Origin: Syntrophorhabdaceae bacterium
GTDB lineage: Bacteria; Desulfobacterota; Syntrophorhabdia; Syntrophorhabdales; Syntrophorhabdaceae
Reading direction: 5' to 3'
Length of the DNA: 64,000 bases
Assembly (NCBI GenBank): GCA_963665295.1
Contig: OY762209.1
Span: forward strand, 1,728,001-1,792,000
The first letter of the stretch is position 1. Every line of letters begins with the position of its first letter. Below are positions 15,000-28,338 of the stretch, in pieces. A program made the position numbers and the translations under genes. The notes under the pieces were generated by a model, which made no database searches, had not been told where the DNA came from, and saw nothing but the letters and a program-made list of their open reading frames with translations.

Positions 15000-15288
15000 T
15001 GGAGCCTCCTTGGGTTTTGCGAACGGATTCGCGGATGCGCCTGTGTCCGCGCAGGCGGGTACAGGCGTGGATGCGGGCCTGTTTTGACATTCCGGACAAA
15101 GAAGACAGGTGGGGGGACCGGCAACCTTATAGAGGAAGCCTAAGCACGGGCGTCCCGGCAGTCAAGCAGGAGGACACCTGCCGTGGAAAACCACTTTTTT
15201 CAACCCCTTTGGACGACGCGGAAGGCCTGATACCGTAGACTCTTCCCATGAGCGCGTTACCAAAAACAGATTACGAAAGGACGGCATT

Positions 15289-15756
15289 ATGAAAGAGAAT
15301 TTTGAATCCACGGTCCGGTTCATCCTGAAAGAGGAAGGGGGCTACGTGACGGACCACGCGGGGGCCACGAAGATGGGCCTTACCGTCGGACTTATGAAGG
15401 CGCTGAAGCTTGACCTTAACCACGACGGGGCGGTGGACGGGAAAGACGTCACCCTTGTGGACGAGGAACTTGTGAGAAAGGTGTTCCTGGAGCAGTTCTG
15501 GAACCCTGTAGGCGGAGACGACCTCCCTCCCGGCATGGACCTCATGGCAGCGGATTTCGCCTATAACGCGGGCCCCAAGGCGGCGAGAGGGCTCCTTGCC
15601 CATGGGGACGTGAGGGATTATACCCTCGGGCGCATCAGGTATTACTGGCAGCTCAGGTGCAAGAATCCCGGGAAGTACAGGGATGATTTCGACGGCTGGA
15701 TAGGCCGCTCGATCCGTGCCTGGCAGAAGGCCGTGGAAATGCGGGCGGGGTCGTAA
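15289..15756 (+). CDS. Glycoside hydrolase family 108 endolysin
   Basis: ILKEEGGYV...GATKMGLT, FW..., DFAYNAGP, FDGWIGR; EF-hand-like DLNHDGAVDGKD insert. Confidence 0.85.
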   Translation: MKENFESTVRFILKEEGGYVTDHAGATKMGLTVGLMKALKLDLNHDGAVDGKDVTLVDEELVRKVFLEQFWNPVGGDDLPPGMDLMAADFAYNAGPKAARGLLAHGDVRDYTLGRIRYYWQLRCKNPGKYRDDFDGWIGRSIRAWQKAVEMRAGS

Positions 15757-15827
15757 GGTAAAGAAAAGTTTGCCGGGGCCTTCCCGGTGTGAAGGACACA
15801 TCAAATACCATACACGGAGGTTACTAC

Positions 15828-16277
15828 ATGGTGAAGGTTTTGGAAAGCTGGTTCGAGGAAGGGTTGCGGTTCGTGGAACACGATATTCTGCCTGTCGCGG
15901 GTCTTGCCCTCAATTTCATCCCCGCCGTCCCGAAGGTGGTGCCCGCAATCCTCTCAAAGATGCCGGAGCTTATCGCCACAGCGGAGAAGATGTTTCCGGG
16001 CAGCGGCAAGGGCGGACTCAAGCAGGATTTCTTCATGAAAACCGCGGAGCTTGTGGCAGCCGATGTGGAGAGCCTTTCCACAGGCGGTCAGGCGGGCACA
16101 TGGAAAGCTCTTCAGCCGAAGATAGAGCCCATCCTCTCCATGGCGATCACAGCCATCAACAGGTTCAGGCCCGGGACTTTCGATTGTGAGGCTGCGGATG
16201 ACGGCGCGGCCCTGTCGGTCGAGAGGCGCCAGGAGGATGAAATGAGGCGTGAGGAAGACCGGGGGCTCTCCCGGTGA
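15828..16277 (+). CDS. Phage hypothetical protein (possibly holin-like)
   Basis: GGAGG RBS; LIATAEKMFPGSGKGGLKQ resembles holin LL-H-like motifs; position after the lysin. Confidence 0.5.
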   Translation: MVKVLESWFEEGLRFVEHDILPVAGLALNFIPAVPKVVPAILSKMPELIATAEKMFPGSGKGGLKQDFFMKTAELVAADVESLSTGGQAGTWKALQPKIEPILSMAITAINRFRPGTFDCEAADDGAALSVERRQEDEMRREEDRGLSR

Positions 16278-16570
16278 GCTGGGCGGAGGTGTTGAAATCC
16301 CTCTCATTCTGGGGGCCGGGCATGGTGATCGCGGGGACTATGGTCGCCGCACTTTACAAACTTGCGGACAAGTATCTCGGCGAATTCATCAAAGCCCAGC
16401 AGGGACAGGCCTCCTCCCTCGCGGCCCTTGCTCAGGGCACGGAGGGCCTGCGGGATTCGGTGCAGGGTTTTGTAGCCGGGGATAACCGGGAGCACCGGGA
16501 AATGATCATTCTTCTCAAATGTGTGACGGAGAAACTGGAACGAATCGAGGAGCAAGTCTATGGATGTTAA
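16274..16570 (+). CDS. Single-TM coiled-coil phage protein (Mu gp25-like position)
   Basis: N-terminal TM segment plus heptad region; GTGA overlap with the upstream gene. Confidence 0.55.
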   Translation: MSWAEVLKSLSFWGPGMVIAGTMVAALYKLADKYLGEFIKAQQGQASSLAALAQGTEGLRDSVQGFVAGDNREHREMIILLKCVTEKLERIEEQVYGC

Positions 16571-16859
16571 GAGAGAAAAATACCGCAGGATCAGGGGGGC
16601 CATGCTCAAATTCCTTGCCAAGGCCCACCCCGGCACCATCGACTCCAGGGTCCTCTACTACCTGCTGGACGACGTGAGATACACCATGACGGAGGACGAG
16701 TTCCTAAGCCACGTGATCTATCTCTCGGAACTCGGATACATGAGGATTGAGAGGCGGGAAGCGACGGGCGTGGAGGTGACCATGTATGTCATCACGCCCC
16801 AGGGTCTGAACCTTCTCGACGGCTTTGTCGCCGACGTCGGTGTGGACGTGAGGTTCTGA
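16560..16859 (+). CDS. Winged-HTH phage protein (Mu gp26-like)
   Basis: IRGAMLKFL...YLSELGY...ITPQGLNLLDG...GV pattern; position before the terminase. Confidence 0.65.
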   Translation: MDVKREKYRRIRGAMLKFLAKAHPGTIDSRVLYYLLDDVRYTMTEDEFLSHVIYLSELGYMRIERREATGVEVTMYVITPQGLNLLDGFVADVGVDVRF

Positions 16860-16911
16860 TGGGCTGTCCAGGGTGCGCCGCACTTCCTGCGGCCTTGCAA
16901 GGCGGCGATGA

Positions 16912-17448
16912 ATGACCCGGAAGGCCTATGGGACGAAAGTACGGGAAGAGGCATACAGGATATGGCTCTCCTCGGGGAAAGACATGGCGAAAACGGTTCG
17001 GGAACTGGAGAAAAAATGCCTCCCTGTGGCGAGGCGGACGGTGGCGGCCTGGAGAGACCGGTATGGCTGGAGGGACCGCGCCCCCGCAATAAAGGAAGAG
17101 CCGGAGGAGGCCCGGACCGATGACGCGGCCCGCCTGATCGCCGACCTGGAGAAACAGAAGGCGAGATACGACAGTTTCTTTGACAGCCTCGGAGAAGCGG
17201 GGATCGACAATCAGGCCACCTACGCCTATACGACCCTCGTGAAAACCATTGCCGAGGTGCGCAAGAAAGCGGCGGAAAAGCCCGACCTCTATGCCATGAC
17301 GCCCGTGGTCATGGATGAGTTCGTGAAGTTCATCAAGGGAAAGGCTTCGAAGGGTTCAGGCAGTCCCGGCGGTTTGAACGGGAAGGACCTGACTGCCTTA
17401 GTCTTCGACCTTATCGACCGGTTTTTCGAAGAGGTCAAACCGGGCTGA
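16912..17448 (+). CDS. Terminase small subunit (Mu gp27-like position, N-terminal HTH)
   Basis: REEAYRIW...RRTVAAWRDRYGW HTH; precedes the large terminase. Confidence 0.7.
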   Translation: MTRKAYGTKVREEAYRIWLSSGKDMAKTVRELEKKCLPVARRTVAAWRDRYGWRDRAPAIKEEPEEARTDDAARLIADLEKQKARYDSFFDSLGEAGIDNQATYAYTTLVKTIAEVRKKAAEKPDLYAMTPVVMDEFVKFIKGKASKGSGSPGGLNGKDLTALVFDLIDRFFEEVKPG

Positions 17449-17526
17449 AGACGGCGGCGAGCCCGGAGCCTGAAAGACGGGCGGAAGTCATGAGCCGGAA
17501 GAGGCAAAAGATAGTGAAGAGTATGA

Positions 17527-19053
17527 ATGAAAGGGGTAGTGAGGACGGCTATGGCGAGTAAAATGGAGATCAAGCGAAAGATCGAGGCGGTTCGGGCCCA
17601 TATGCGCGCGGAGGCGACGCCCTTCGGGAACACCTCGGCGGAGGCGCGGGACGAAAGGGTCAGGAGGTGCCGGGCGGAAGACGGGTATTTCGCGAGGACC
17701 TATCTTCCCCATTACTTCAACCGCCCGTCGCCCGCGTTTCACCGGGAGATCTACGAGTTCGCGAAGGTAGAAGACGAGCCTGTCTTCATCGCGGCCCCGC
17801 GGGAGCATGCGAAGTCTACCATTGTGAGTTTCGAGACCCCTATCGAGGACATCTGTCTCGAGCGGAAGCAGTTCATCATCCTCATTTCCGACACGGAGGA
17901 CCTTGCCGCGGATTTCAATGTCTTCATCATGCTCGAACTGGAAGAAAACGAGCGGATAAGGGCGGACTTCGGGGATTTGAAAGGTCGTCAATGGAAAGCG
18001 GAGGATTTTACCACGAAAAACGGCATCCGGGTCAAGGCGCGGGGCCGCGGACAGCGACTGAGGGGCTTGAGAAACAGGCAGTACAGGCCGGACAGGGTTA
18101 TCATCGACGACCTGGAAAATGACAAGAACGTGAAAAACCCGAAGCTCGTCAAAGAGACGGTCAACTGGATTCTCACCACCGTCATGGGGTCCCTGGAAAG
18201 AAACTTTTCCATGATGATGATCGGGACCATCCTCGCGAGGAATTCCGTCCTCTCCCGGTTTATCGACGCCCTTGACGAGAAGGGGCGGGCCCTCTACCTG
18301 AGCCGGATATACCGCGCCGTCAGGGAAGACGGGACGCCCCTGTGGCCTGACAAGTGGCCCCTCGAAAGGCTCGAAAAGAAGAAGCGGCAGATAGGCTCCG
18401 TCAACTTCAACCAGGAATTCATGAACGACCCCAGGGACGATGAGGGCATGTTCCGGGAGGAATGGATCAGGCCCTACTATCCGGAGGAACTGTCAGGCAG
18501 GCAGCTCAGGGCATACACCTACATCGACCCGTCCATGGAGAATGGGGCGTCCACGGACTACAAGGCAATTATCACCATCGGCATGGACGGGGAAGGCGTA
18601 ATCTACATCCTCGACGCCTTCATCGGCCGGTGCAGTATAGACGCCATGGCGCGGATCGGCTATTCCCGGTACGAGGAATTCCGGCCCCTCGGGTTCGGCA
18701 TGGAAGAAAACGCCCTCGGAGAATTTGCACGGAGCCCTTTCAAGCTTGTGGCAAGGGAGAAGAACTACCAGCTCCCCATACGGGGGATCAAACACTCCAC
18801 ATCCAAGGAAGCCCGGATCGGGAGGCTGTCGGCCTTTGTGGAGAGGGGCATTATAAGGTTCCGGAGGGGCCAGGGGAACCAGGACCTCCTGGTGGAACAG
18901 CTTATCGCCTTTCCGTCGTCCACTGTCAATGACGACGGTCCCGATGCCCTGGAAGGGGCGGTGGCCATGGCCGAAGAAGGCGCGGGAGGCGTGGTGGAGT
19001 TCCAGTCCACGGGCAGGAGAAGGGAATCGACACGAATGGAGGCATATTTTTGA
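17527..19053 (+). CDS. Terminase large subunit
   Basis: Walker A APREHAKST; RGLR...RPDRVIIDDLE; IDPS and DDGPDAL nuclease motifs; start 17527 or 17551. Confidence 0.92.
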   Translation: MKGVVRTAMASKMEIKRKIEAVRAHMRAEATPFGNTSAEARDERVRRCRAEDGYFARTYLPHYFNRPSPAFHREIYEFAKVEDEPVFIAAPREHAKSTIVSFETPIEDICLERKQFIILISDTEDLAADFNVFIMLELEENERIRADFGDLKGRQWKAEDFTTKNGIRVKARGRGQRLRGLRNRQYRPDRVIIDDLENDKNVKNPKLVKETVNWILTTVMGSLERNFSMMMIGTILARNSVLSRFIDALDEKGRALYLSRIYRAVREDGTPLWPDKWPLERLEKKKRQIGSVNFNQEFMNDPRDDEGMFREEWIRPYYPEELSGRQLRAYTYIDPSMENGASTDYKAIITIGMDGEGVIYILDAFIGRCSIDAMARIGYSRYEEFRPLGFGMEENALGEFARSPFKLVAREKNYQLPIRGIKHSTSKEARIGRLSAFVERGIIRFRRGQGNQDLLVEQLIAFPSSTVNDDGPDALEGAVAMAEEGAGGVVEFQSTGRRRESTRMEAYF

Positions 19054-20393
19054 AAGACCGGATATTGAGACCTGTGACCGATGAAATCGCGACCGCGGAG
19101 AAGGACATCTACCAGGACTATATGGGAAAGATCAGGATCAACCCCGACCGGTTGCTCAGGCGGGAGTCCGGCGGAAAAGGCATCGAGCTTTACGAAGACC
19201 TGCTTCGCGACGACCAGGTGGGATCGAACCTCAATACGCGCAAGCTCGCGGTGGTGGGAAAGGAATGGGAGGTTGTCCCCGCCTCGGAAAGAAAACAGGA
19301 CCAGCGGATCGCGGGGTTCGTCAAAGAGGTGCTCCTCAGATGCAATTACGACGATGCCCGAAGGACTCTCCTCTCCGGCCTCGTCCTCGGGTTCAAACCC
19401 GTGGAGGTCATGTGGGAATATTCAGAAGGTGACGTCTGGATCAGGGAGATCATCGGCAAGGCTTCCCGGCGGTTTGTATTCGACCTCGCGGGACGGCTCC
19501 GCCTCCTGACGACCCGGGATATGGTCCAGGGCGAGGAGGTGCCGGAGAGGAAATTCATGGTCTACGCGAATGCCTCCGACAACGGTTCGCCCTACGGCGA
19601 CGGCCTGGGGAGGCTCCTTTACTGGCCCGTGTGGTTCAAGAAGAACGCCATCAAGTTCTGGATGACCTTTGCCGACAAGTTCGGGAGTCCCACTGCCATA
19701 GGAAAGTATCCGCCCGGCACGCCCGAGGCTCAGCAGGACCAGCTTTTGTGGGCCATTGACGCCATACAGCAGGAATCGGCCATCAAAATACCGAACAACG
19801 TGGAGATCGGTTTCCTGGAAGCGACCCGCTCCGGGTCGGTGAACACCTACGAGAGCCTTTGCGCATTCATGAACGCCGCCATATCCAAGGTGCTCCTCGG
19901 CCAAACCCTCACCACGGAGGTGGGCGCAGCAGGGAGCTACGCGGCCTCGCGCACCCACGAGACGGTGCGGGAGGATTACGTCAAGGCCGACGCGGACTCC
20001 CTGTGCGCCGCCCTCAACCGTCAACTCGTGCGCTGGATCGTGGACTACAACTTCCCCGGCGTGACCCGGTACCCCTTGGTCTGGATCAGGACGGAGGCGG
20101 AAAAGGACCTTAAACTCCTTGCCGACCGGGACAAGGTGATCATCGTAGACATGGGGGTGCCTGTAACCGCCGATTACATCTATAACACCTATGGAATCCC
20201 GAAGCCCGAGGACGGCGAGAAGCTTATAAATGCCCCTGCAAAAGGGCCTGTAAGCCCACAACCGGATCAGCCAAACCCGCAAAATGATAGGTCCGCAAGT
20301 TTTGCAGAACAGACCCCTGGGAACTCCGCGCTCATCGAGGCGCAACGGAACATAGACACTCTCGCGGGTAATGCCGTGAAACAGGCAGAATAG
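19050..20393 (+). CDS. Mu gp29-like portal protein (DUF935), C-terminus probably clipped by a deletion
   Basis: PYGDGL, FKKNAIKFW, KFGSPTAIGKY, ISKVLLGQTLTTE, GSYAASRTH. Confidence 0.9.
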   Translation: MKDRILRPVTDEIATAEKDIYQDYMGKIRINPDRLLRRESGGKGIELYEDLLRDDQVGSNLNTRKLAVVGKEWEVVPASERKQDQRIAGFVKEVLLRCNYDDARRTLLSGLVLGFKPVEVMWEYSEGDVWIREIIGKASRRFVFDLAGRLRLLTTRDMVQGEEVPERKFMVYANASDNGSPYGDGLGRLLYWPVWFKKNAIKFWMTFADKFGSPTAIGKYPPGTPEAQQDQLLWAIDAIQQESAIKIPNNVEIGFLEATRSGSVNTYESLCAFMNAAISKVLLGQTLTTEVGAAGSYAASRTHETVREDYVKADADSLCAALNRQLVRWIVDYNFPGVTRYPLVWIRTEAEKDLKLLADRDKVIIVDMGVPVTADYIYNTYGIPKPEDGEKLINAPAKGPVSPQPDQPNPQNDRSASFAEQTPGNSALIEAQRNIDTLAGNAVKQAE

Positions 20394-20560
20394 TCATGAG
20401 AAAACGTTATGTTTCGTCTATCGATGCGGGCGGAAATCGGCAGATGCTGCTTGTCGCGGAGAGCGCCCGAGGGCAATGGACGGGGTACACAGCCTTCTAT
20501 ACGCGGAATTACGGCTACATTGACGGCATTCGGAACGGGGTATTGCTCTATGGAAAATAG
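20378..20560 (+). pseudogene. C-terminal remnant of a MuF-associated PBECR2-like nuclease/toxin domain
   Basis: Frame of ATG 20396 reads RETGRIVMRKRYVSSIDAGGNRQMLLVAESARGQWTGYTAFYTRNYGYIDGIRNGVLLYGK*; RxRY...WxGxT...Y...RxGxLLY pattern; occupies the gpF slot. Confidence 0.6.
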
Positions 20561-20639
20561 ACGGGGTCAGGCGTCCCCCGTGCGGAACGTGGCCGGTCTT
20601 TGCTGTGTCGGGTGCACGGCCCACAGCATCGACATCACA

Positions 20640-20667
20640 AGTATAACACAGCAAAAGGACGTGTCAA
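20640..20667 (-). promoter_or_regulatory. Near-consensus sigma70 promoter, antisense to the phage operon
   Basis: Minus strand TTGACA-N16-TATACT with extended -10 (TGTTATACT). Confidence 0.7.
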
Positions 20668-20671
20668 GGGG

Positions 20672-20899
20672 CCGATCGACACCGCCCGGCTTCGGAACGC
20701 CACAAATTACAGAGCCTATGCGAACAGGGTGAAAATAGGCACGAATGCAGTGTATTCCGCCATTCATCAGTTCGGAGGCAAGACAGGCAGGAGCCCTAAA
20801 GTTACGATTCCCGCCCGGCCGTATCTCGCGGTCCACGATGAGGATTGGCCGGAGATCAAAAGGGTAATTGAGAACTATCTCACGAGGAGGAACGCATAA
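20672..20899 (+). pseudogene. C-terminal half of a Mu gpG-like virion morphogenesis (tail-completion) gene
   Basis: IDTARLRN...IGTNAVYSAIHQFGG...IPARPYL motifs; N-terminal half and a credible start are absent. Confidence 0.75.
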
Positions 20900-22062
20900 T
20901 GCCAAACTACATCGAGCGCCGATTCCCCGTCTTTAAGGCGGGCACACACACGGATTCGGGAGGGCAGCAAAGAACCTGGACCCCTGCCGATCTCGACCAT
21001 ATGGCTTCGGCCTACGATCCCGCTCACCACGAAGCCCCCGTGGTGATAGGTCACCCCAAAGACAATTCACCGGCCTTCGGCTGGGTCAAGGGCTTGAGCC
21101 ACGAGGACGGCATGATCTACGCCCGGGCGGAACTTGTTCCGGAATTCGATGAAATGGTGCGGAAGGGCCTTTTCAAGAAGCGTTCCATCTCGCTCTATGA
21201 AGACGGCTCGCTGAGACATATCGGGTTCCTCGGGGCAAGGCCGCCCGCGGTAAAGGGGCTCCCTGATATCCGGTTCAACGACGGGAAGGAGGCTGCGGTC
21301 GTCATCGTGACGAACAGTCTCCAGGGACCGAACGGAAACGAAGTGCCCCGCGGCAAACCAAGGGGTTTCAAAGGCGATTACCCCGCCTTGACACTGTTTC
21401 GAAGCACGCTTCGGGGTATGGGCCCGCGGGGCAATCAACCACAAGGAGGTAGAGAAATGAAATTTTTCGAATGGGCCAGACAACTGGCCGGCAAGGAAGG
21501 GGTCACCCTCGAAGACCTGCCCCCGTCCTTTTCCGAGGCGGAGATTGAGAAGAGGATCGAAAAGGCCTTGACGGAGGAGCGAACGAGGATTGCCACGGGG
21601 TTTGCCGAGGCGCGGAAGGCGGAGGAGGAAAAACTGAGAAAGAGGGAAGAGGACCTCAACGCAAAGGAAAGAGAGGCGAGAAACAAGGGCATCGCCTCAT
21701 TCTGCGAGGCCCTGGAAAGGGAGGGGAGGCTTACCCCGGCTATGATGAAGGCGGGTATGGGCATGACGAACTTCCTCACCGCCATCGGTTCCATGGATGG
21801 GACCATCGAGTTCGGGGAGACAGACCACAAGACCTCGCAGACCCCCCTCGAGTTCATGGAGATGTTTCTCCGAGGGCTCCCCAAAGCCATAGAATTCGGC
21901 GAAGTGGCCTTTGCGGGCAAGGACCCCGGGGCAAAGGGGGACTCCGGGAAATGGGAAAGGCTCGTGGAGAGCTACATGGAAAAGAATCCCTCGGCGTCAT
22001 ACAGGGAAGCGATACTCATTGTGTCGAAGGAGAACCCGGAGCTTTTTCAGGAAAGGGAGTAG
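20899..22062 (+). CDS. Mu gpI-like prohead protease with C-terminal scaffold
   Basis: APVVIGHP, PAFGWV, FKKRSIS, LRHIGFLGARPPAVKGL. Confidence 0.88.
   Translation: MPNYIERRFPVFKAGTHTDSGGQQRTWTPADLDHMASAYDPAHHEAPVVIGHPKDNSPAFGWVKGLSHEDGMIYARAELVPEFDEMVRKGLFKKRSISLYEDGSLRHIGFLGARPPAVKGLPDIRFNDGKEAAVVIVTNSLQGPNGNEVPRGKPRGFKGDYPALTLFRSTLRGMGPRGNQPQGGREMKFFEWARQLAGKEGVTLEDLPPSFSEAEIEKRIEKALTEERTRIATGFAEARKAEEEKLRKREEDLNAKEREARNKGIASFCEALEREGRLTPAMMKAGMGMTNFLTAIGSMDGTIEFGETDHKTSQTPLEFMEMFLRGLPKAIEFGEVAFAGKDPGAKGDSGKWERLVESYMEKNPSASYREAILIVSKENPELFQERE
21457..22062 (+). CDS. Nested in-frame scaffolding protein (Mu gpZ-like)
   Basis: AAGGAGGT RBS six nt before the in-frame ATG 21457; coiled-coil product. 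Confidence 0.65.
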   Translation: MKFFEWARQLAGKEGVTLEDLPPSFSEAEIEKRIEKALTEERTRIATGFAEARKAEEEKLRKREEDLNAKEREARNKGIASFCEALEREGRLTPAMMKAGMGMTNFLTAIGSMDGTIEFGETDHKTSQTPLEFMEMFLRGLPKAIEFGEVAFAGKDPGAKGDSGKWERLVESYMEKNPSASYREAILIVSKENPELFQERE

Positions 22063-22109
22063 AGGGTCCGCGGTTCCAACGACCTAAAGGGTTAATACAA
22101 GGAGGCAAT

Positions 22110-22493
22110 ATGATAGGACAGACCACAGGATTGGAGAAATCGGTAAAGTGCGGGGCAGCCGTACCTGAGGCGTATACCATCGCCAAATTCGGCGCGGACG
22201 ACGATACCATGTCCCTTGCCACAGGGGCATCGGACATGCTCGCCGGTGTTTTCCAGCATACCACCACGGAGGCGGGAGAAGAGGTGCGCCTTATGATGGG
22301 AGGGGTGACGAAGATCAGACTCGGCGGGTCGGTCACCAGGGGGCATGCCCTCACGTCCGACGCGTCGGGCCGGGGAATCTCCGCCGCCCCCGCAACGGGA
22401 AGCAACGCCCGCGTTATTGGTGTGAGTCTCGCGAGCGGTGCCTCGGGAGACATTGTCACCATGCTCATCGCCCCGTCCGTAATACAGGGGTAA
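22110..22493 (+). CDS. Capsid decoration/cement protein (DUF2190-like)
   Basis: GGSVTRGHALTSDASGRG...ASGASGDIV; AAGGAGG RBS. Confidence 0.8.
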   Translation: MIGQTTGLEKSVKCGAAVPEAYTIAKFGADDDTMSLATGASDMLAGVFQHTTTEAGEEVRLMMGGVTKIRLGGSVTRGHALTSDASGRGISAAPATGSNARVIGVSLASGASGDIVTMLIAPSVIQG

Positions 22494-22549
22494 GAGCCAT
22501 TCAGGCGGCTTAAAGACGTTCGAGGGATTAAGAAAAGGAGGAAGACCAC

Positions 22550-23488
22550 ATGTCCGAACCGAGACAATTGCACGTAGACAGCGTATTATCGAATCTTTCC
22601 ATCAAATACAGGAACGAAGCCATGATCTGGCCCAGGGTCCTGCCCCAGGTTAAAGTGGGTTTCCGGTCAAACAAGTTCGACAGGTATAACAAAGAGGACA
22701 GCTACCGCCTCGCCGCCGACCATATCGGCCCGAAATCTCTCCCCAACGAAGCGGAGTGGGGAGTGACCCAGGACAACTATTCCGTGAAGGACCACGCCCT
22801 CGGGGAATGGCTCCCTCAGGAAAGCATAGACAACGCGGACAATCCCCTTCAGCCGGAGATGGATACCAACGATTTCCTGAACCTTCTCCTCGATATTGCC
22901 CAGGAGAGAAGAGTGGCGAACCTGGTTTTCAGCGCCGCCGCCTATCCCACGGGGAACAGGGTCAGCCTCTCGGGTACCTCCCAGTGGGGCGGGTCCGCGG
23001 ACGACCCCATAGGGAACCTCCTCACTGCGGTGGAATCCTGTTTCATCCGGGCCAACACAGTGGTAATGGGGGCGGAAACGTGGCTCACCTTCCGCAAGTT
23101 GCCGGAAATCCTCGACGCGGTAAAAGGAGGGTCCCGCTACCAGGGGAGCCCCGGAGGGCTTGCCACCACAGACGAGTGCCGGGGCCTCTTCGAAGTGGAG
23201 AACTGGCTCGTGGGGAGGGGCCGCTACATTACCTCTCCCGAAGGGCAGACCTCCGCGTTTTCAAGGCTGTGGGGCAAGCATTGCGCGGCCCTCTACGTGG
23301 ACCCGAACCCGGGGGTTAAGACCGTCACTTTCGGGGTTACCTTTTCCGAGATGCTCCGCCAGACCCAGCGCGATTTCGACCCCAAAAGGGGCATTAAGGG
23401 TGCCCACTATTTCAAGGTAGCCTGGAACTCGGACGAGAAGATCATCGCAAGCGACCTGGGGTATTTGATCGAGAACGCGGTACCGTAA
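22550..23488 (+). CDS. Major capsid protein (HK97 fold)
   Basis: HVDSVLSNLSIKYRN, ERRVANLV, LSGTSQW, DPI, LWG, GYLIENAV. Confidence 0.88.
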   Translation: MSEPRQLHVDSVLSNLSIKYRNEAMIWPRVLPQVKVGFRSNKFDRYNKEDSYRLAADHIGPKSLPNEAEWGVTQDNYSVKDHALGEWLPQESIDNADNPLQPEMDTNDFLNLLLDIAQERRVANLVFSAAAYPTGNRVSLSGTSQWGGSADDPIGNLLTAVESCFIRANTVVMGAETWLTFRKLPEILDAVKGGSRYQGSPGGLATTDECRGLFEVENWLVGRGRYITSPEGQTSAFSRLWGKHCAALYVDPNPGVKTVTFGVTFSEMLRQTQRDFDPKRGIKGAHYFKVAWNSDEKIIASDLGYLIENAVP

Positions 23489-23504
23489 GAAAGGAGCTGA
23501 TCGA

Positions 23505-23669
23505 ATGCCCGCATACAGAGTGTTGGATGCACATATATACCACGACGGGGCCATGTACGGTCCCGGCGACATGGTGGAGCTTACGGAGGAACAGGCGGAA
23601 AAACTTCGTGTGGCAAAGGTGGCGGAGGGCCGGAAGAATCAGGAAAAGGGCGGCACGAGGAAACGATAG
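23505..23669 (+). CDS. Small head-associated protein (Mu gp35-like position), 54 aa, absent from the ORF track
   Basis: AAGGAG RBS; MPAYRVLDAHIYHDGAMYGPGDMVELTEEQAEKL... Confidence 0.65.
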   Translation: MPAYRVLDAHIYHDGAMYGPGDMVELTEEQAEKLRVAKVAEGRKNQEKGGTRKR

Positions 23670-23686
23670 CGCGTCCCGGAGGAACC

Positions 23687-24118
23687 ATGTACAGTACCAT
23701 CGATGATTTGAAAAAACTGATCCCGGAGGAAACCCTCATCCAACTCACGGACGACGAGGGGAAAGGGGTGGTAGTGGTCACCCGGGCGGAAGAGGCTATA
23801 GCGCAGGCGGATGGGGAGATTGATTCGTATTGCGCCGTGAAATACGCGGTTCCCCTCGTCCCCGTCCCCGGGATCGTGAAGAAATGTTCCGTCGACATGG
23901 CCCTCTATAACCTTTACAGTCGTCGCGTGGAGGAGATCCCTTCCACCCGCGCCGACCGTTACCGGAATGCGGTCCGCCTTCTCGAGGGAATAGTGAAAGG
24001 GACCGTATCCCTCGGAGAGGTCCCCGGAGCGGAGGCTCCAAGGCAGGGCGATTGGATCGAATCGACCCGGGAGGAAAGTGAAAGGACCGTGACGAGGTCG
24101 AGGCTGGAGGGATTCTGA
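23687..24118 (+). CDS. Mu gp36-like head-tail adaptor (DUF1320)
   Basis: MYSTIDDL...LIQLTDD...ADGEIDSY...YAVPL...RYRNAVRLLE...GTVSLG. Confidence 0.88.
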   Translation: MYSTIDDLKKLIPEETLIQLTDDEGKGVVVVTRAEEAIAQADGEIDSYCAVKYAVPLVPVPGIVKKCSVDMALYNLYSRRVEEIPSTRADRYRNAVRLLEGIVKGTVSLGEVPGAEAPRQGDWIESTREESERTVTRSRLEGF

Positions 24119-24120
24119 CA

Positions 24121-24627
24121 ATGAGGACAGACACGGACGCGGGATGGGGGAGGGATGAATGGGCCGACCAGCCCTACGGCGGGTTATTGGATACCGTTGT
24201 CGCCATAGAAGAGGCGATAAAGGCCGGGATCAGGGATGCCATGCCCTATGTGAAGACGGTGGATACCTACGCGGGCCAGCTCGAAGAGGATATCTCCCGC
24301 CTTGTCCAACCCTTTCCCGCGGTCTTCGTTACTTACGGAGGCTCGGCGTTTGAGTGGGTGGACGGCCGCAGTTTCAGCGCTGCACCGGATTTTTCGGTTA
24401 TCGTGGCGGCCAGGGATTTGAGGGGCAAAGAGGATTTGAGGAAGGCCGAATACGGTTGCTACCGGATGGTCGCAGACGCCCTCGCCGCCATCGCCAACCA
24501 GACCTTCGGGCTGGACATCCTGCCCATGAAGCCCGTCAAGGTGGCGCTCATGCTGGTTTCAAGGACCGTGGCAGCCTATGGCATAGATTTTCAGACCGCC
24601 TTCGACACCGTCTATCCCCCGCAATAG
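24121..24627 (+). CDS. Mu gp37-like neck/tail-terminator protein (DUF1834)
   Basis: IEEAI, VDTYAGQL, FPAVFVTYGG; synteny after gp36. Confidence 0.75.
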   Translation: MRTDTDAGWGRDEWADQPYGGLLDTVVAIEEAIKAGIRDAMPYVKTVDTYAGQLEEDISRLVQPFPAVFVTYGGSAFEWVDGRSFSAAPDFSVIVAARDLRGKEDLRKAEYGCYRMVADALAAIANQTFGLDILPMKPVKVALMLVSRTVAAYGIDFQTAFDTVYPPQ

Positions 24628-24763
24628 AAGAAAGAGGAGGAAAGATAAGGAATATGAAGGAGGCGGAACCCGGTTCAGGGACGAGGTATTTGAAAGAGCC
24701 GCGAATACGGGGAATGCGACTGAAGGCAGCGATGATATGACAAGTTCAGAGGAGGGATAAACC

Positions 24764-25825
24764 ATGCCAAGCGGAGTGGCGGGAGTAGAAGTAAGAGGGG
24801 CATTGAAAAAGGCCTCGGCGTGGGGCGCGGCGGTGGCGTGCGCAACGGGTGACGGAATACTGATGTTGCCGTCGAGCCTCAGGAAGGACGCACCGATCGA
24901 AATCGACGATTCAATGGGCACATTTTTCAGCAAGGACGGCCTTCCCGGCACCATCAAGGTGGAGGGGGACCTTCTCGCGTATTTGAGGTATGACGGCCTG
25001 GACGTGCCCATCGCCCTTGCCATGGGCATTGCGGGCGCGCCGGCCCAGCAGGGGGCTGCCGCCGCCTATGGGTTCACCTACAGGTTCGCCACGTCGGTGG
25101 ATGGTTTGTTCGCGAGCTTCGCGCAACACATGAAGAACTACATCATGGAAATCCCGTCCCTCAAGGTGACCGGATTCACCATCAAGGGGGAAACGGGCAA
25201 AGCCGTGGAGATCACCTTTCACACGATCTCAATCAACAAGGTCTATGACTCGGCAGTCAATACGACTGCCACATTCGATAATGTCACCTATTTCGAGCAG
25301 CAGAACCGTATAAAGTTCTCCGAGTCGGTGTTCCGGATGAACGACCAGGGCGGCGCGGCCCTCGGCTCCGGTGACAGGATATACCCGAGTTCCTTTGAGC
25401 TTTCAGTGAAGAGGAAGCTGAAAGGAGAGTATACGGGGGAGTTCAAATACACCGGCGGCTCGAATGTGCAGGATTTGATTGATGAGCCCACCAATGACGG
25501 CATGCCGGAAATCAGTCTGAAAATAGTTTTTCCGAGGCACACGGGCACGACGTATCTCGCGGCCCTCGGCACGGATACGCGAAAGAAGATGGACATTACC
25601 TTTACGGGAGCGAATATCGCCTCCGCCTACAACAGGACTTTTGCGCTCCGGTTCCCCCACCTGCAACTCAGGAACGACGATCCCGCGGATGCGGCGGGGA
25701 TCATCAGGGAACCCCTGGAATTTATCGTTCACGGGGCAGTGACCGCGCCCGTGGGTATGACGGGGTGTACGGACCCCCTGTGGATAAGCGGGATCAATAA
25801 GCGCTCCACCGACCCTCTGGCATAG
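24764..25825 (+). CDS. Major tail tube protein (non-contractile)
   Basis: Beta-rich, siphoviral tube-like sequence; position before the chaperones and tape measure; no sheath gene. Confidence 0.7.
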   Translation: MPSGVAGVEVRGALKKASAWGAAVACATGDGILMLPSSLRKDAPIEIDDSMGTFFSKDGLPGTIKVEGDLLAYLRYDGLDVPIALAMGIAGAPAQQGAAAAYGFTYRFATSVDGLFASFAQHMKNYIMEIPSLKVTGFTIKGETGKAVEITFHTISINKVYDSAVNTTATFDNVTYFEQQNRIKFSESVFRMNDQGGAALGSGDRIYPSSFELSVKRKLKGEYTGEFKYTGGSNVQDLIDEPTNDGMPEISLKIVFPRHTGTTYLAALGTDTRKKMDITFTGANIASAYNRTFALRFPHLQLRNDDPADAAGIIREPLEFIVHGAVTAPVGMTGCTDPLWISGINKRSTDPLA

Positions 25826-25950
25826 GTGGCGTGTCTGAGGCGCATCCTCGATCGTTCCCTCGCGGACCGTGCCGTTTCGACCTTTGTCGTACCCACGGTG
25901 CCGGGGACTTAGGGGTTTCACGGAATAAGAACTGTCATAAGGAGGTATAC

Positions 25951-26364
25951 ATGGAGTTACGGGGATTGAAGAATGAAAGTTTACAGGGTTGGGTGCCCTT
26001 TGATGATGATACGGAGATACTCATTGCCTATGTGTCGAGGGAGGACCTGAGGGTGCTCAGAAAAGAGGCTACTTCCCTGAAGTTCATGAGGCACGGGAAG
26101 TCGGAAGAGACCGATGCGAAAGAGGCGGACAGGCTCCTGGGAAGAAAGGCCGTCAAGGACTGGCGGGCGCTTCCCGGGAGAAAGGGTTTTACCATGGGTG
26201 GAGAGCCCTTCAGGTATTCTCCGGAGAACTGTGATTTCCTCATGGAGAGGTTCAACGAATTCGCGAATTTCGTGAATGAGACCGCCATCGATTTTGTGAC
26301 CTTCGTGGAGGAGGAGAAGGAAGAAACGCTAAAAAACTCCTCAGCCACATCAGGGCAAGGATAG
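25951..26364 (+). CDS. Tail assembly chaperone (gpG-type)
   Basis: TAAGGAGGT RBS; ends at a slippery A-AAA-AAC site. Confidence 0.75.
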   Translation: MELRGLKNESLQGWVPFDDDTEILIAYVSREDLRVLRKEATSLKFMRHGKSEETDAKEADRLLGRKAVKDWRALPGRKGFTMGGEPFRYSPENCDFLMERFNEFANFVNETAIDFVTFVEEEKEETLKNSSATSGQG

Positions 26365-26645
26365 ACTTTCCTGGTGTGTCGTGCGAGGAATGCGAGCGGG
26401 GCCGGCAGATCGACGGCGACGTGCCCCGTTGCGAGACGGAGCAGGGCTGCATCATTCCGTCCCTGGAGGGGACGGGCGCGCGGGTCATGGCGATGAGGGA
26501 AAGATTGACAAGCCTCAAGGGCCTGGTCGACAGCGGAACTGTCCTGGCCTTATACGAAGCGACGAGGGAAGACCTGGAAATGCTTGCGAAGGTGGAAGAG
26601 GCGATGGGAACAATGAAACAACCGGGGAGTATGAAAAATGGCTGA
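26337..26645 (+). CDS. -1 frameshift extension of the tail assembly chaperone (gpT-type)
   Basis: -1 frame is open from the slippery site 26331-26337 into track ORF 26376-26645 (CEEC...C...C). Confidence 0.75.
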   Translation, partial: LLSHIRARIDFPGVSCEECERGRQIDGDVPRCETEQGCIIPSLEGTGARVMAMRERLTSLKGLVDSGTVLALYEATREDLEMLAKVEEAMGTMKQPGSMKNG

Positions 26646-28338
26646 GCTGAGGATCACAGGCACCGGGGACAAGGACATCCGGAGAGGGCCCTTAGCGGTG
26701 AAGGACAACCTGCCATCTGCCTTTCGCCGGGCGGGGTGCGCCAGGTTCATCTCCGCTTTCGACATGCTGAAGACCGGGTTCGGCCCAATCATCACGGCCG
26801 GTCCCGTGTCTGCGCCCCTTATGATCGATTTGCCGGCCAGGCCAATGGATGATGTGGTGGAGGCGCAAATGCCCGACGCCATAATCAGTGCGCCCCGCAA
26901 CAGGGGATGTGGCACGCAGCAGGGCGGGCAACATGGGAATCCGCCAAAGGAGAAGGGCGTGGATTTCGTGTCACCCCTCTCTGTGGTGACGTCCACGGAC
27001 CGGCCGTGCGCCGGGACCCGTGGGTTGACCGGCGGCCGTATATGGGCCGCGCCGGGTGTGGCTGTACCAGGGGATACCCGCATATTACAGGCGACGGAAA
27101 CGTGCGGCCGTGACGGGCAATCCCGAAGAAGGGAGCCCACCGGATGCACGGGCATCGATACGGGGAGGGACCGGGCATGTCACGAGCCTGTCCTGTTCCT
27201 CGATAGGCGGGCGGCCGCGCCTCGGGTGACGGAGAAAGGCGTGACGAGTTGGATGGTCCCGAAAAACCCGGGCAGGACGTCTTCCAAAGTCCGTGTCCCG
27301 GCCATGGACAGGGTGGAGACGGAGGCTCGGGAGCCTTCCGGGTATCGCACCCGGTCCGGAGGATTGGGCGAGGCTGCCAACGGGACTGTCCGCCTCTTTG
27401 CCCCCTCTCCCGTCGCCCGCCTTGACGCGGGTGCGCCCAGACCCGAACACCGGTCCAGGTCCGGCAATATTGAAACAAGGGGCGTCAAAACAAGCCTTGC
27501 AGTCGATAGGCGGGCGGCCGGGACGGACCGGATCAGCCGGGCCTTTTCGAAATCCCCCAACCAGGCCAAGGAAGCGCTTGTGCATCAAATTCCCGCGCCG
27601 AGCCGCATCCTTCGGGAAAGAGGGGGCGTCCGGCACGTCGAGCTCCCGGAATTGAAGGGTGGAGAGGGGGCAAGGACGCCTGAAGGCTTCCGGAGAAGGA
27701 CCTTTGCCTCGTTGAGGGAGGTATTTCGTGTTGAAAGGGAAAAACTTCCTGCGAAAGGAAGAGCGGGTTTGGACGTCTTCGGGGAATTCCGGGACCCCGG
27801 GATGGCGGGGGCATACCAAACGATGGTGAAACAGGACAAGGGAGAGGTTTACAGGAAGGGTTATGACCCCATGTCCTTCCATGAACAATACGGTCTCCGG
27901 GGCAAGGTCCCGGAGTCGTCCCGTGTTATCGGCTCTCAGAAAACGGGCTCGACCGACCGGTTCGGGCGAATGGGCGTCCCTCCTCTTCGCGAGGGGGCGC
28001 ACATCGTGCCCGTGAAGAAAGACGTGAGGTCCGCGGTTATCGAGGTCCACGGGACGATTGAGACCACAGGGCTTATAACGGGCTATGCCGCGGGCACGGA
28101 CTATGTGCCCCGGACAGGCCTCTATCAGCTCCACAAAGGCGAGGCGGTAATACCCGCGAAAGAAAACAGGCGGGGCGGTTCGGGCCGTTCGGAGGACCCG
28201 CGCTCCCCGGCACCTTCCATTATCCTGTCGCCGGGGGCCATAGTCATCAATGGCGCCGACAAATCGCCCGAGGAACTGGCCCGCCTCATCGTAAAGCCTC
28301 TTGACAGGGAACTCAAAAGACTGGGGTATAGGTCATGA
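26638..28338 (+). CDS. Degenerate tape-measure-like protein
   Basis: TMP position; TMP-like termini (MAELRIT...; GYAAGTDYVPRTGLYQLHKGEAVIP...IVINGA); core rich in Arg/Pro/Gly. Confidence 0.6.
   Translation: MAELRITGTGDKDIRRGPLAVKDNLPSAFRRAGCARFISAFDMLKTGFGPIITAGPVSAPLMIDLPARPMDDVVEAQMPDAIISAPRNRGCGTQQGGQHGNPPKEKGVDFVSPLSVVTSTDRPCAGTRGLTGGRIWAAPGVAVPGDTRILQATETCGRDGQSRRREPTGCTGIDTGRDRACHEPVLFLDRRAAAPRVTEKGVTSWMVPKNPGRTSSKVRVPAMDRVETEAREPSGYRTRSGGLGEAANGTVRLFAPSPVARLDAGAPRPEHRSRSGNIETRGVKTSLAVDRRAAGTDRISRAFSKSPNQAKEALVHQIPAPSRILRERGGVRHVELPELKGGEGARTPEGFRRRTFASLREVFRVEREKLPAKGRAGLDVFGEFRDPGMAGAYQTMVKQDKGEVYRKGYDPMSFHEQYGLRGKVPESSRVIGSQKTGSTDRFGRMGVPPLREGAHIVPVKKDVRSAVIEVHGTIETTGLITGYAAGTDYVPRTGLYQLHKGEAVIPAKENRRGGSGRSEDPRSPAPSIILSPGAIVINGADKSPEELARLIVKPLDRELKRLGYRS

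Follow-up and report, generated by a model that had tools for sequence, protein, structure and literature searches.

A widespread gene for a structured RNA, linked to the BECR-fold RNase domains of phages: a candidate RNA antitoxin

Comparative sequence analysis points to a real and widespread structured RNA gene that is tied to the BECR-fold RNase domains of phages, and of which no earlier description was found. Its product is probably a protein-binding RNA antitoxin, type III-like in action without being a member of type III. To our knowledge, protein-binding RNA antitoxins are known from few toxin families. In the accessible text of PMC5576092 and PMC11699363, the immunity factors of polymorphic toxins are proteins. 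If the antitoxin reading is correct, an unrelated RNase fold and an RNA family distributed across several phyla would be added to the RNA antitoxins; it would also account for the way in which a phage can carry an RNase in its virion and leave the producing cell alive, and for the lack of immunity ORFs with PBECR genes. Moreover, PBECR function would become directly testable, as the RNA should allow cloning of the toxin and reveal the shape of its substrate.

The locus in a decaying Mu-like prophage

The element is located in the head module of a decaying Mu-like prophage, within the window, that is the whole stretch of 64,000 nucleotides that was analysed (1728001-1792000, C1). The module includes a terminase (17527-19053) and a Mu-type portal gene with a truncated C-terminus (19050..20393, plus strand; PF06074, E 1e-112). 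Comparison with a sister prophage and with locus L006 places a first deletion junction at 20385/20386, where about 1.1 kb is gone, comprising the portal end, MuF and about two thirds of PBECR2 including the conserved His. What is left of the MuF-PBECR2 gene are its final 58 codons (20386..20560, plus strand), containing an ATG-led 54-aa ORF (20396-20560). PBECR2 is the sole Pfam match of this remnant, which covers only positions 71-119 of the 120 of PF18810 (E 7.7e-8, 33 bits; curated cut-off 27.1). In particular, the comparison with the intact L006, L007 and A1 indicates that both the conserved His, a putative active-site residue of the N-terminal helix, as well as the EIW motif have been deleted, and the toxin remnant of the window is presumed to be inactive. 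The original prediction had placed a structured RNA just behind a nuclease domain: the RNA holds, while the domain is here a 58-codon deletion remnant, which had gone unstated.

A second junction, at 20676/20677, removed 200 bp of the 5′ end of the virion morphogenesis gene gpG, of which a remnant persists (20668..20899, plus strand; PF05069, E 4.9e-17) with GGG in place of the GTG start codon of the sister prophage. DNA contigs from two of four runs, whose kind is unrecorded and which may equal the source sample, cross both junctions with no differences. Between the two deletions 291 bp are preserved, corresponding to the toxin tail, the ~70-nt RNA and its minus-strand promoter. The survival of this island is suggestive of retention, but it is a single instance, and other parts of the prophage show decay as well. 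As had been predicted, no ORF for a protein immunity factor lies between the toxin tail and gpG, and PADLOC returned nothing. On the 3′ side of the gpG remnant follow a probable head protease, named from its position with no Pfam match, then gp36, gp37 and the tail tube. Close intact relatives of the MuF-PBECR2 protein are named from Syntrophorhabdus and Syntrophobacterales.

Some further features of the prophage were noticed. The tape-measure region (26601-28207) fails to align with its counterpart in the sister prophage and falls short of it by about 1.4 kb; the terminase region is also unlike the sister's, so that the two prophages are mosaic relatives. In addition, the stretch 21256-21455, within the head-protease ORF, has matches of 75-83% at three further sites in the genome, which suggests a small repeated element inserted in the head-protease gene.

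A reverse promoter behind PBECR2 genes

Facing the late operon on the minus strand, the window carries a sigma-70-type promoter with a TTGACA -35 box (20662..20667) and an extended -10 element (20640..20648), the latter formed by a TG (20648-20647) and the box TATACT (20645-20640; TATAAT in the sister prophage). The site is thus as originally predicted, with 11 of 12 consensus matches and a 16-nt spacer with TG. Although it is the best of three sites in the region 15000-26000, the promoter of the window alone is only suggestive, because shuffled sequences yield as many sites (3.9 of any grade). Its non-random nature emerges from conservation, since the same site is found in the sister prophage and in relatives.

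Relatives were gathered from genomes, viral contigs and metagenomes through family searches and profile searches. These gave 179 loci with a profile match, of which 69 were dropped (near-duplicates, contig ends, missing C-terminus and one low score), leaving 110 with the window included. A reverse site was sought within 220 nt of the stop codon and scored against an unfitted consensus of 13 points. At a score of at least 10/13, a reverse promoter is present behind 58 of the 110 PBECR2 genes, against 2/110 on the forward strand, 1.5% of shuffles, 2/20 MuF genes lacking a toxin and 0/12 MuF genes with other extensions (two ADP-ribosyltransferase, one papain-fold, the remainder unnamed). The conserved reverse promoter for which the original prediction had asked is borne out, and in 45 of the 58 cases it sits 80-99 nt from the end of the PBECR2 domain. 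At nine points the contrast is weaker (79/110 versus 6/20 toxin-less MuF and 17% of shuffles), and the 52 loci that remain below 10/13 count against the antitoxin reading.

Fold and strand of the RNA

The predicted RNA of the window, here called class I, is a ~70-nt structured molecule (20560..20633, minus strand) that would start near 20633, as judged from promoter spacing. A covariance model matches 20560-20639 on the minus strand with 46.5 bits, the window being part of its training set. The predicted transcript (20633-20556), with a minimum free energy of -25.9, is not more stably folded than its own shuffles (z = 0.08) and Rfam 15 gives no match over the element at E <=10, so the window by itself decides little. 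Among related loci, no Rfam 15 family reached its gathering score in 20, and ARAGORN reported 0 tRNA or tmRNA genes in 15.

An anchor search proposed a loop-loop candidate in 77 of the 110 loci; 16 were removed by eye (second class or wrong anchor), and the remaining 61 class I RNAs were aligned by sequence only. Read on the minus strand, they consist of two hairpins, 1 and 2, separated by a short linker; a 6-bp helix joins their loops, and a GGGCC core is near-invariant. The paired cells of this model amount to 86.6%, compared with 62.5% in shuffles and 40-52% in slid registers, and two-sided changes occur at 18 of its 19 pairs. Specifically, hairpin 1 (20596..20633) is formed by the stem P1 (20633-20623/20606-20596), a 3-nt bulge and a GGG/CCC stem (20622-20620/20612-20610) that closes a loop of 7 nt in the window and 7-8 nt among relatives; 82-97% of its cells are paired, eight of nine counted pairs show two-sided changes, and it also appears in the RNAalifold consensus. 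Hairpin 2 (20565..20594) has an inner stem (20589-20584/20577-20572), whose inner four pairs are 76.7% paired with two-sided changes in all, and an outer stem (20594-20590/20569-20565) derived from the sequence and from per-sequence pairing, apart from the alignment count. The kissing helix joins the hexamer CCGUGC of loop 1 (20614..20619) to GCACGG of loop 2 (20578..20583). It shows two-sided changes in six of six pairs and 86.9% pairing, counts that are inflated because loop complementarity was partly a selection criterion for the 61, and its covariation is blind to whether the contact is intra- or intermolecular. The 61 loci contain 34 different loop hexamers; each locus's own partner fits at 6/6 positions in 40 loci and at 5/6 in 21, whereas foreign hexamers reach 6/6 in 1.1% of 3518 cross pairs. 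The kiss is also seen, by eye, in the held-out loci L017, L331, L335, L325, L190 and L360, which were found with a model built without it.

All four complementary segment pairs of the original prediction are present where it had placed them. Its TGCTGTG/CACAGCA stem is borne out by covariation in the 61 relatives. The pairing of GCACGG, located at 20614-20619, with 20578-20583 is likewise borne out, not as an alternative contact but as the main loop-loop helix. On the other hand, the ACGGGG/CCCCGU and GGCCG/CGGCC helices, proposed as an ACGGGG/CCCCGT hairpin and a pairing of CGGCC with 20591-20595, were rejected, their pairing being close to shuffle level (57.4% versus 55.7%, with 22 of 500 shuffles as high).

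The structure covaries as the original prediction had foreseen, and the wobble pairs favour the strand of the reverse promoter: internal wobbles read as G·U in 60 cells on the minus strand and in 32 on the plus strand. This bears on a reading in which the conserved element would act in the plus-strand mRNA, as a processing site, a terminator or a translational control of gpG, and the reverse promoter would be a by-product or serve transcriptional interference only. The -35 box indeed adjoins the gpG start codon in many loci, and folding is seen on either strand (mean z of -2.1 for plus and -3.0 for minus), the minus strand being lower in 46/61. The wobble excess, however, is concentrated in hairpin 1 (38 versus 12), where 22 G·U cells of the GGG/CCC stem favour the minus strand; hairpin 2 has no strand bias (22 versus 20), a result that counts against the antitoxin reading. 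In addition, the promoter keeps its 16-17-nt spacing and its TG and stands at a constant distance from the fold, irrespective of the gene that comes next and also inside long ORFs. We hold an mRNA element to be very improbable.

The class I RNA lies 3′ of the toxin stop codon in 61/61 loci, its folded core clear of the coding region. Regarding competing coding capacity, a Shine-Dalgarno-led ORF of at least 50 aa occurs in 3/61 class I loci, the three being mutually unlike and overlapping the RNA, versus 6/12 MuF genes with other extensions. This fits the earlier observation of a missing protein immunity gene.

The nuclease domain

The intact relatives are 376-aa MuF-PBECR2 fusions, and some relatives are much larger virion proteins. 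When an intact domain was modelled with AlphaFold2 (pLDDT 82), the best fold match was the tRNase domain of colicin D (Z 5.2; rmsd 3.0, 80 aligned residues), followed by CdiA toxins and other RNases (Z 4.0-4.5). These scores are low, and they agree with the BECR assignment given in the accessible text of PMC5512222 and bioRxiv 10.64898/2026.08.28.747851. Foldseek gave no match at E <=0.001 and no solved-structure relative was found by sequence. ToxN-family structures are absent among the fold matches listed, an absence that excludes nothing. All of 18 close intact relatives have the conserved His, as do 73% of the 110 rows. According to the part of Iyer et al. (PMC5512222) that was available, PBECR domains may spare tRNA and need not be toxic, and they are found in up to 26% of polyvalent proteins.

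Linkage of RNA and toxin

In a search of 93 sources, the class I model gave nine matches at E <=1; each lies behind a PBECR2 gene or the remnant of one, on the minus strand, and none is in the 32 control loci. A find made from the RNA side, L190, leads back to an intact MuF-PBECR2 gene upstream. A search of 151 genomes with the RNA model was insensitive, because it missed the window's own copy, and single-protein scans of viral contigs returned nothing. A scan with a degenerate DNA pattern produced mostly chance hits: of its 120 stretches, 80 were passed through the RNA model, and one was real.

The sister prophage, located at 5.44-5.47 Mb of C1 in the same genome, offers a direct view of cassette exchange. 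It is 89-95% identical to the window on both flanks; specifically, a 91% match extends up to the portal end and resumes from the -10 box. Between these flanks it carries another toxin domain and a different RNA, closed by a stem, behind a perfect TTGACA-16-TATAAT promoter. This domain matches PBECR3 below the cut-off (E 0.014), and it shows no profile alignment with PBECR2 (probability 0.2%). The locus (L002; G000:C1:5450809-5452104) encodes an intact MuF fused to the weakly PBECR3-like domain, and its RNA of ~110 nt, closed by a stem around three inner hairpins or stems, is of the same type as that of L067.

In general, RNA identity tracks the toxin more closely than the MuF N-terminus, with partial rho values of 0.34 and 0.06, respectively, in 47 loci among which kin are not independent. 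Nearest-neighbour agreement of the RNA is 24 for the toxin and 6 for the MuF N-terminus, and in pairs with 90-93% MuF identity and 31-33% toxin identity the RNA identity is at background; the gpG control of this comparison is weak, as it includes badly aligned rows. A second RNA class coincides with one His-less toxin clade (15/16 rows; support 99 in a quick tree, with classes labelled by eye). In this class II two stems covary, and a putative kissing register is 52% paired on a MAFFT alignment. RNA type would consequently follow the toxin and not the phage chassis, as far as sequence comparison goes, while joint movement of toxin and RNA could equally be expected from mere adjacency.

The linkage has exceptions. 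PBECR2 genes with no visible RNA, which count against the antitoxin reading, include L336, where the conserved His and Arg are kept, L262, L345 and L023; further cases are L104 (no His, gpG directly next), L053 (insertion) and L290 (tRNA-like end next). In L270 and L328 one or two small ORFs, membrane-protein-like in L270, lie between toxin and RNA gene, and may be either passengers or added protein immunity. In L008 (1660-1850), L009, L010 and L013, two different folded units appear by eye to be stacked behind one toxin, with one promoter in L008 and L009 and separate reverse promoters in L010 and L013; these are possibly arrays of orphan RNAs, like poly-immunity loci. Other RNA types with reverse promoters were observed behind 2634 in L079 and behind 2643 in L090 (unnamed MuF extension), and in L116 a reverse promoter and an RNA with a cloverleaf-like fold follow a MuF_C-like domain, behind 2649. 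Class I RNAs are kept behind broken PBECR2 genes in L360 (1501-1581) and in L017/L286 (1879-1959), the latter having an internal stop; L360 retains a short tail near CRISPR-like repeats and is probably broken, a remnant judged by eye and carrying no profile score.

These data can be confronted with the possibility that the RNA is a cis-antisense silencer of the type I kind. In such a case, the RNA or a longer transcript would curb leaky toxin expression in the lysogen, by pairing with the toxin mRNA in its 3′ region or by colliding with late transcription. A long antisense transcript is conceivable because there is no strong conserved intrinsic terminator 3′ of class I, a U-rich tract (at least 5 of 8) being found in 25/61. 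The convergent geometry right behind the stop codon is that of Clostridia type I loci (PMC6563280, in its accessible part), complementarity to the operon mRNA is full and automatic, and the restriction of the element to RNase-type domains agrees with a role in guarding against a toxin. Nevertheless, antisense action would have no need of a tertiary fold that covaries and has an almost invariant GGGCC core; an intramolecular kiss would take up the very loops that an antisense RNA needs to seed pairing. The RNA also lies beyond the stop codon in every class I locus, separated from the toxin by inserted ORFs in L270 and L328, and other MuF toxins at the same position manage with no RNA. Silencing of head-gene mRNA would, in addition, oppose lytic growth, and it would not stop a protein already delivered. 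The RNA's change with the toxin and the scarcity of the promoter in toxin-less MuF and Mu weaken the originally proposed role of keeping the virion operon quiet, and we regard an antisense silencer as unlikely.

A different possibility is that the RNA is a positive partner of the nuclease, namely a cofactor, an activator, a guide or a dedicated substrate, or that it is associated with the head and forms oligomers through intermolecular kisses, perhaps after the manner of the phi29 pRNA. One co-inherited, structurally conserved RNA per nuclease domain would fit any cognate ribonucleoprotein, RNA binding has been proposed for Mu gpF (in the accessible part of PMC5512222), and the covariation is compatible with an intermolecular kiss. 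Against a guide speaks the lack of an unpaired variable segment, as the variable loop bases pair with each other, and absence from toxin-less heads and from Mu argues against a general packaging RNA. The RNA also persists where the nuclease is broken (the window, L017/L286 and probably L360) and occupies the immunity slot. A positive partner is, in our estimate, quite unlikely.

A candidate mechanism

According to the favoured antitoxin reading, the small folded RNA would serve as immunity factor against a PBECR2 RNase domain that is joined to MuF, a head protein; the domain is assumed to be an active, toxic RNase that would be delivered with the virion. A host sigma-70 promoter facing the late operon would allow constitutive transcription of the RNA, independently of late transcription, and for this reason the RNA could be present in the lysogen and during early infection. 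Two hairpins locked by the 6-bp loop-loop helix would give the RNA a compact shape, and in this form it would bind directly to the cognate colicin-D-like RNase and block it, perhaps acting as decoy of a substrate that resembles tRNA. As a cassette, toxin tail and RNA move together; the flanks in common on either side are the MuF N-terminus and the promoter/gpG junction. In the window, where the toxin is deleted, the orphan RNA could still protect the lysogen against superinfection by related phages. The original idea of a convergent RNA that replaces protein immunity has come through the comparative analyses, with the exception of its second hairpin, which is not conserved in the form proposed.

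Comparison with known systems

In type III toxin-antitoxin systems, the antitoxin RNA is pseudoknotted and is encoded upstream of the toxin, in the same transcript; it inhibits the toxin protein by binding and is in turn cleaved by this protein. The present element resembles these systems (ToxIN, TenpIN, CptIN and AbiQ, as described in the accessible part of PMC10853763) in the combination of an RNase toxin with a small RNA antitoxin and no protein partner, and its loop-loop helix of the kissing type provides a pseudoknot feature. Unlike type III with its tandem array, however, the window and the class I loci have a single RNA unit between the toxin's stop codon and the promoter, and the stacked units of L008, L010 and L013 are, by eye, unlike each other. 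The RNA gene lies downstream, on the opposite strand, with its own promoter; the toxin is probably a BECR/colicin-D-like domain fused to a virion protein and not ToxN; and the setting is a phage late region instead of a host defence module. Since neither the array nor the upstream position is found, the element was not filed as type III.

Small, hydrophobic proteins are the rule among type I toxins. In the present case, the toxin would be the RNase domain of a virion protein of 376 aa or much more, and the RNA has a conserved tertiary fold; the likeness to type I is the convergent small RNA gene at the 3′ end of the toxin (PMC6563280, accessible text).

With the MuF polymorphic toxins (PMC5576092; Bxa and Apk2, PMC11699363; both in part), the locus shares a MuF N-terminal domain, an exchangeable C-terminal toxin, both seen in intact relatives and the sister prophage and deleted in the window, and a temperate-phage head module. 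A cognate partner directly downstream and the occurrence of orphan partners are further points in common. In the accessible part of PMC5576092, MuF toxin immunity is a small protein, and a small ORF follows 89.4% of 191 toxin genes; the immunity slot is instead occupied here by a convergent RNA gene, with the Shine-Dalgarno-led ORFs limited to the three class I loci mentioned above. The nuclease belongs to the same family as the PBECR domains of polyvalent proteins, as indicated by the PF18810 match, the MuF fusion and the conserved His of the main clade, and the accessible text of PMC5512222 and bioRxiv 10.64898/2026.08.28.747851 mentions no RNA partner, reverse promoter or inhibitor. An RNA partner of PBECR or MuF toxins was not found in the literature searched, which included PMC11318856 and few subscription papers and consisted of main texts, the supplements of PMC5512222 and PMC5576092 being places that may list relevant neighbourhoods.

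Extension to polyvalent proteins

A promoter matrix derived from 74 PBECR2 sites was run on 16 PBECR1/3 domains from genomes and phages, most of them inside very long ORFs; L365 and L366, weak PBECR3 matches below the cut-off with an ORF next and no promoter, were left out. The stretch 65-130 nt behind the PBECR1/3 domain ranks in the top 5% of its locus in 11/16 cases and is the best in 10/16, compared with 3/20 toxin-less MuF and 3/12 other extensions in controls by rank only. At a matrix score of at least 10 bits, the counts are 11/16 for PBECR1/3, 1/20 for toxin-less MuF, 0/12 for other extensions and none for Mu. In phage Mu gene F overlaps G and the promoter is absent; the Mu MuF-C domain is called inactive in the accessible part of PMC5512222. 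The minus-strand segment behind 14 of the 16 PBECR1/3 domains (two loci without a promoter being omitted, and one distance set by eye) has a mean z of -1.9, with -1.3 on the plus strand, versus 0.06 in 69 control windows. Such segments often correspond to a closed three-way junction with a pyrimidine tail.

A broader, tentative proposal, which we would place somewhat short of an even chance, is that a general layer of RNA immunity exists. Every virion-borne BECR-fold RNase domain, whether in MuF, a portal or a polyvalent protein of several thousand residues, would have its own structured RNA inhibitor, transcribed from a reverse host-type promoter that is sometimes hidden in a protein linker. 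Cassettes would be swapped like polymorphic toxin-immunity pairs, lysogens would keep or stack orphan RNAs against related phages, and the RNAs would be evolving decoys of tRNA-cutting nucleases.

The RNA family extends across several phyla and into cultured phages, namely Thermus phage Riverbug and Meiothermus phage MMP7, and similar promoters are found in Itty13 and PBC5. Reverse promoters within long ORFs for polyvalent proteins were seen in L363, L368-L371, L373-L378, L380 and L382, with three sites within 2 kb in L380, and the promoters internal to ORFs encode linker peptides of the type S-I/L-x(5-7)-V/K.
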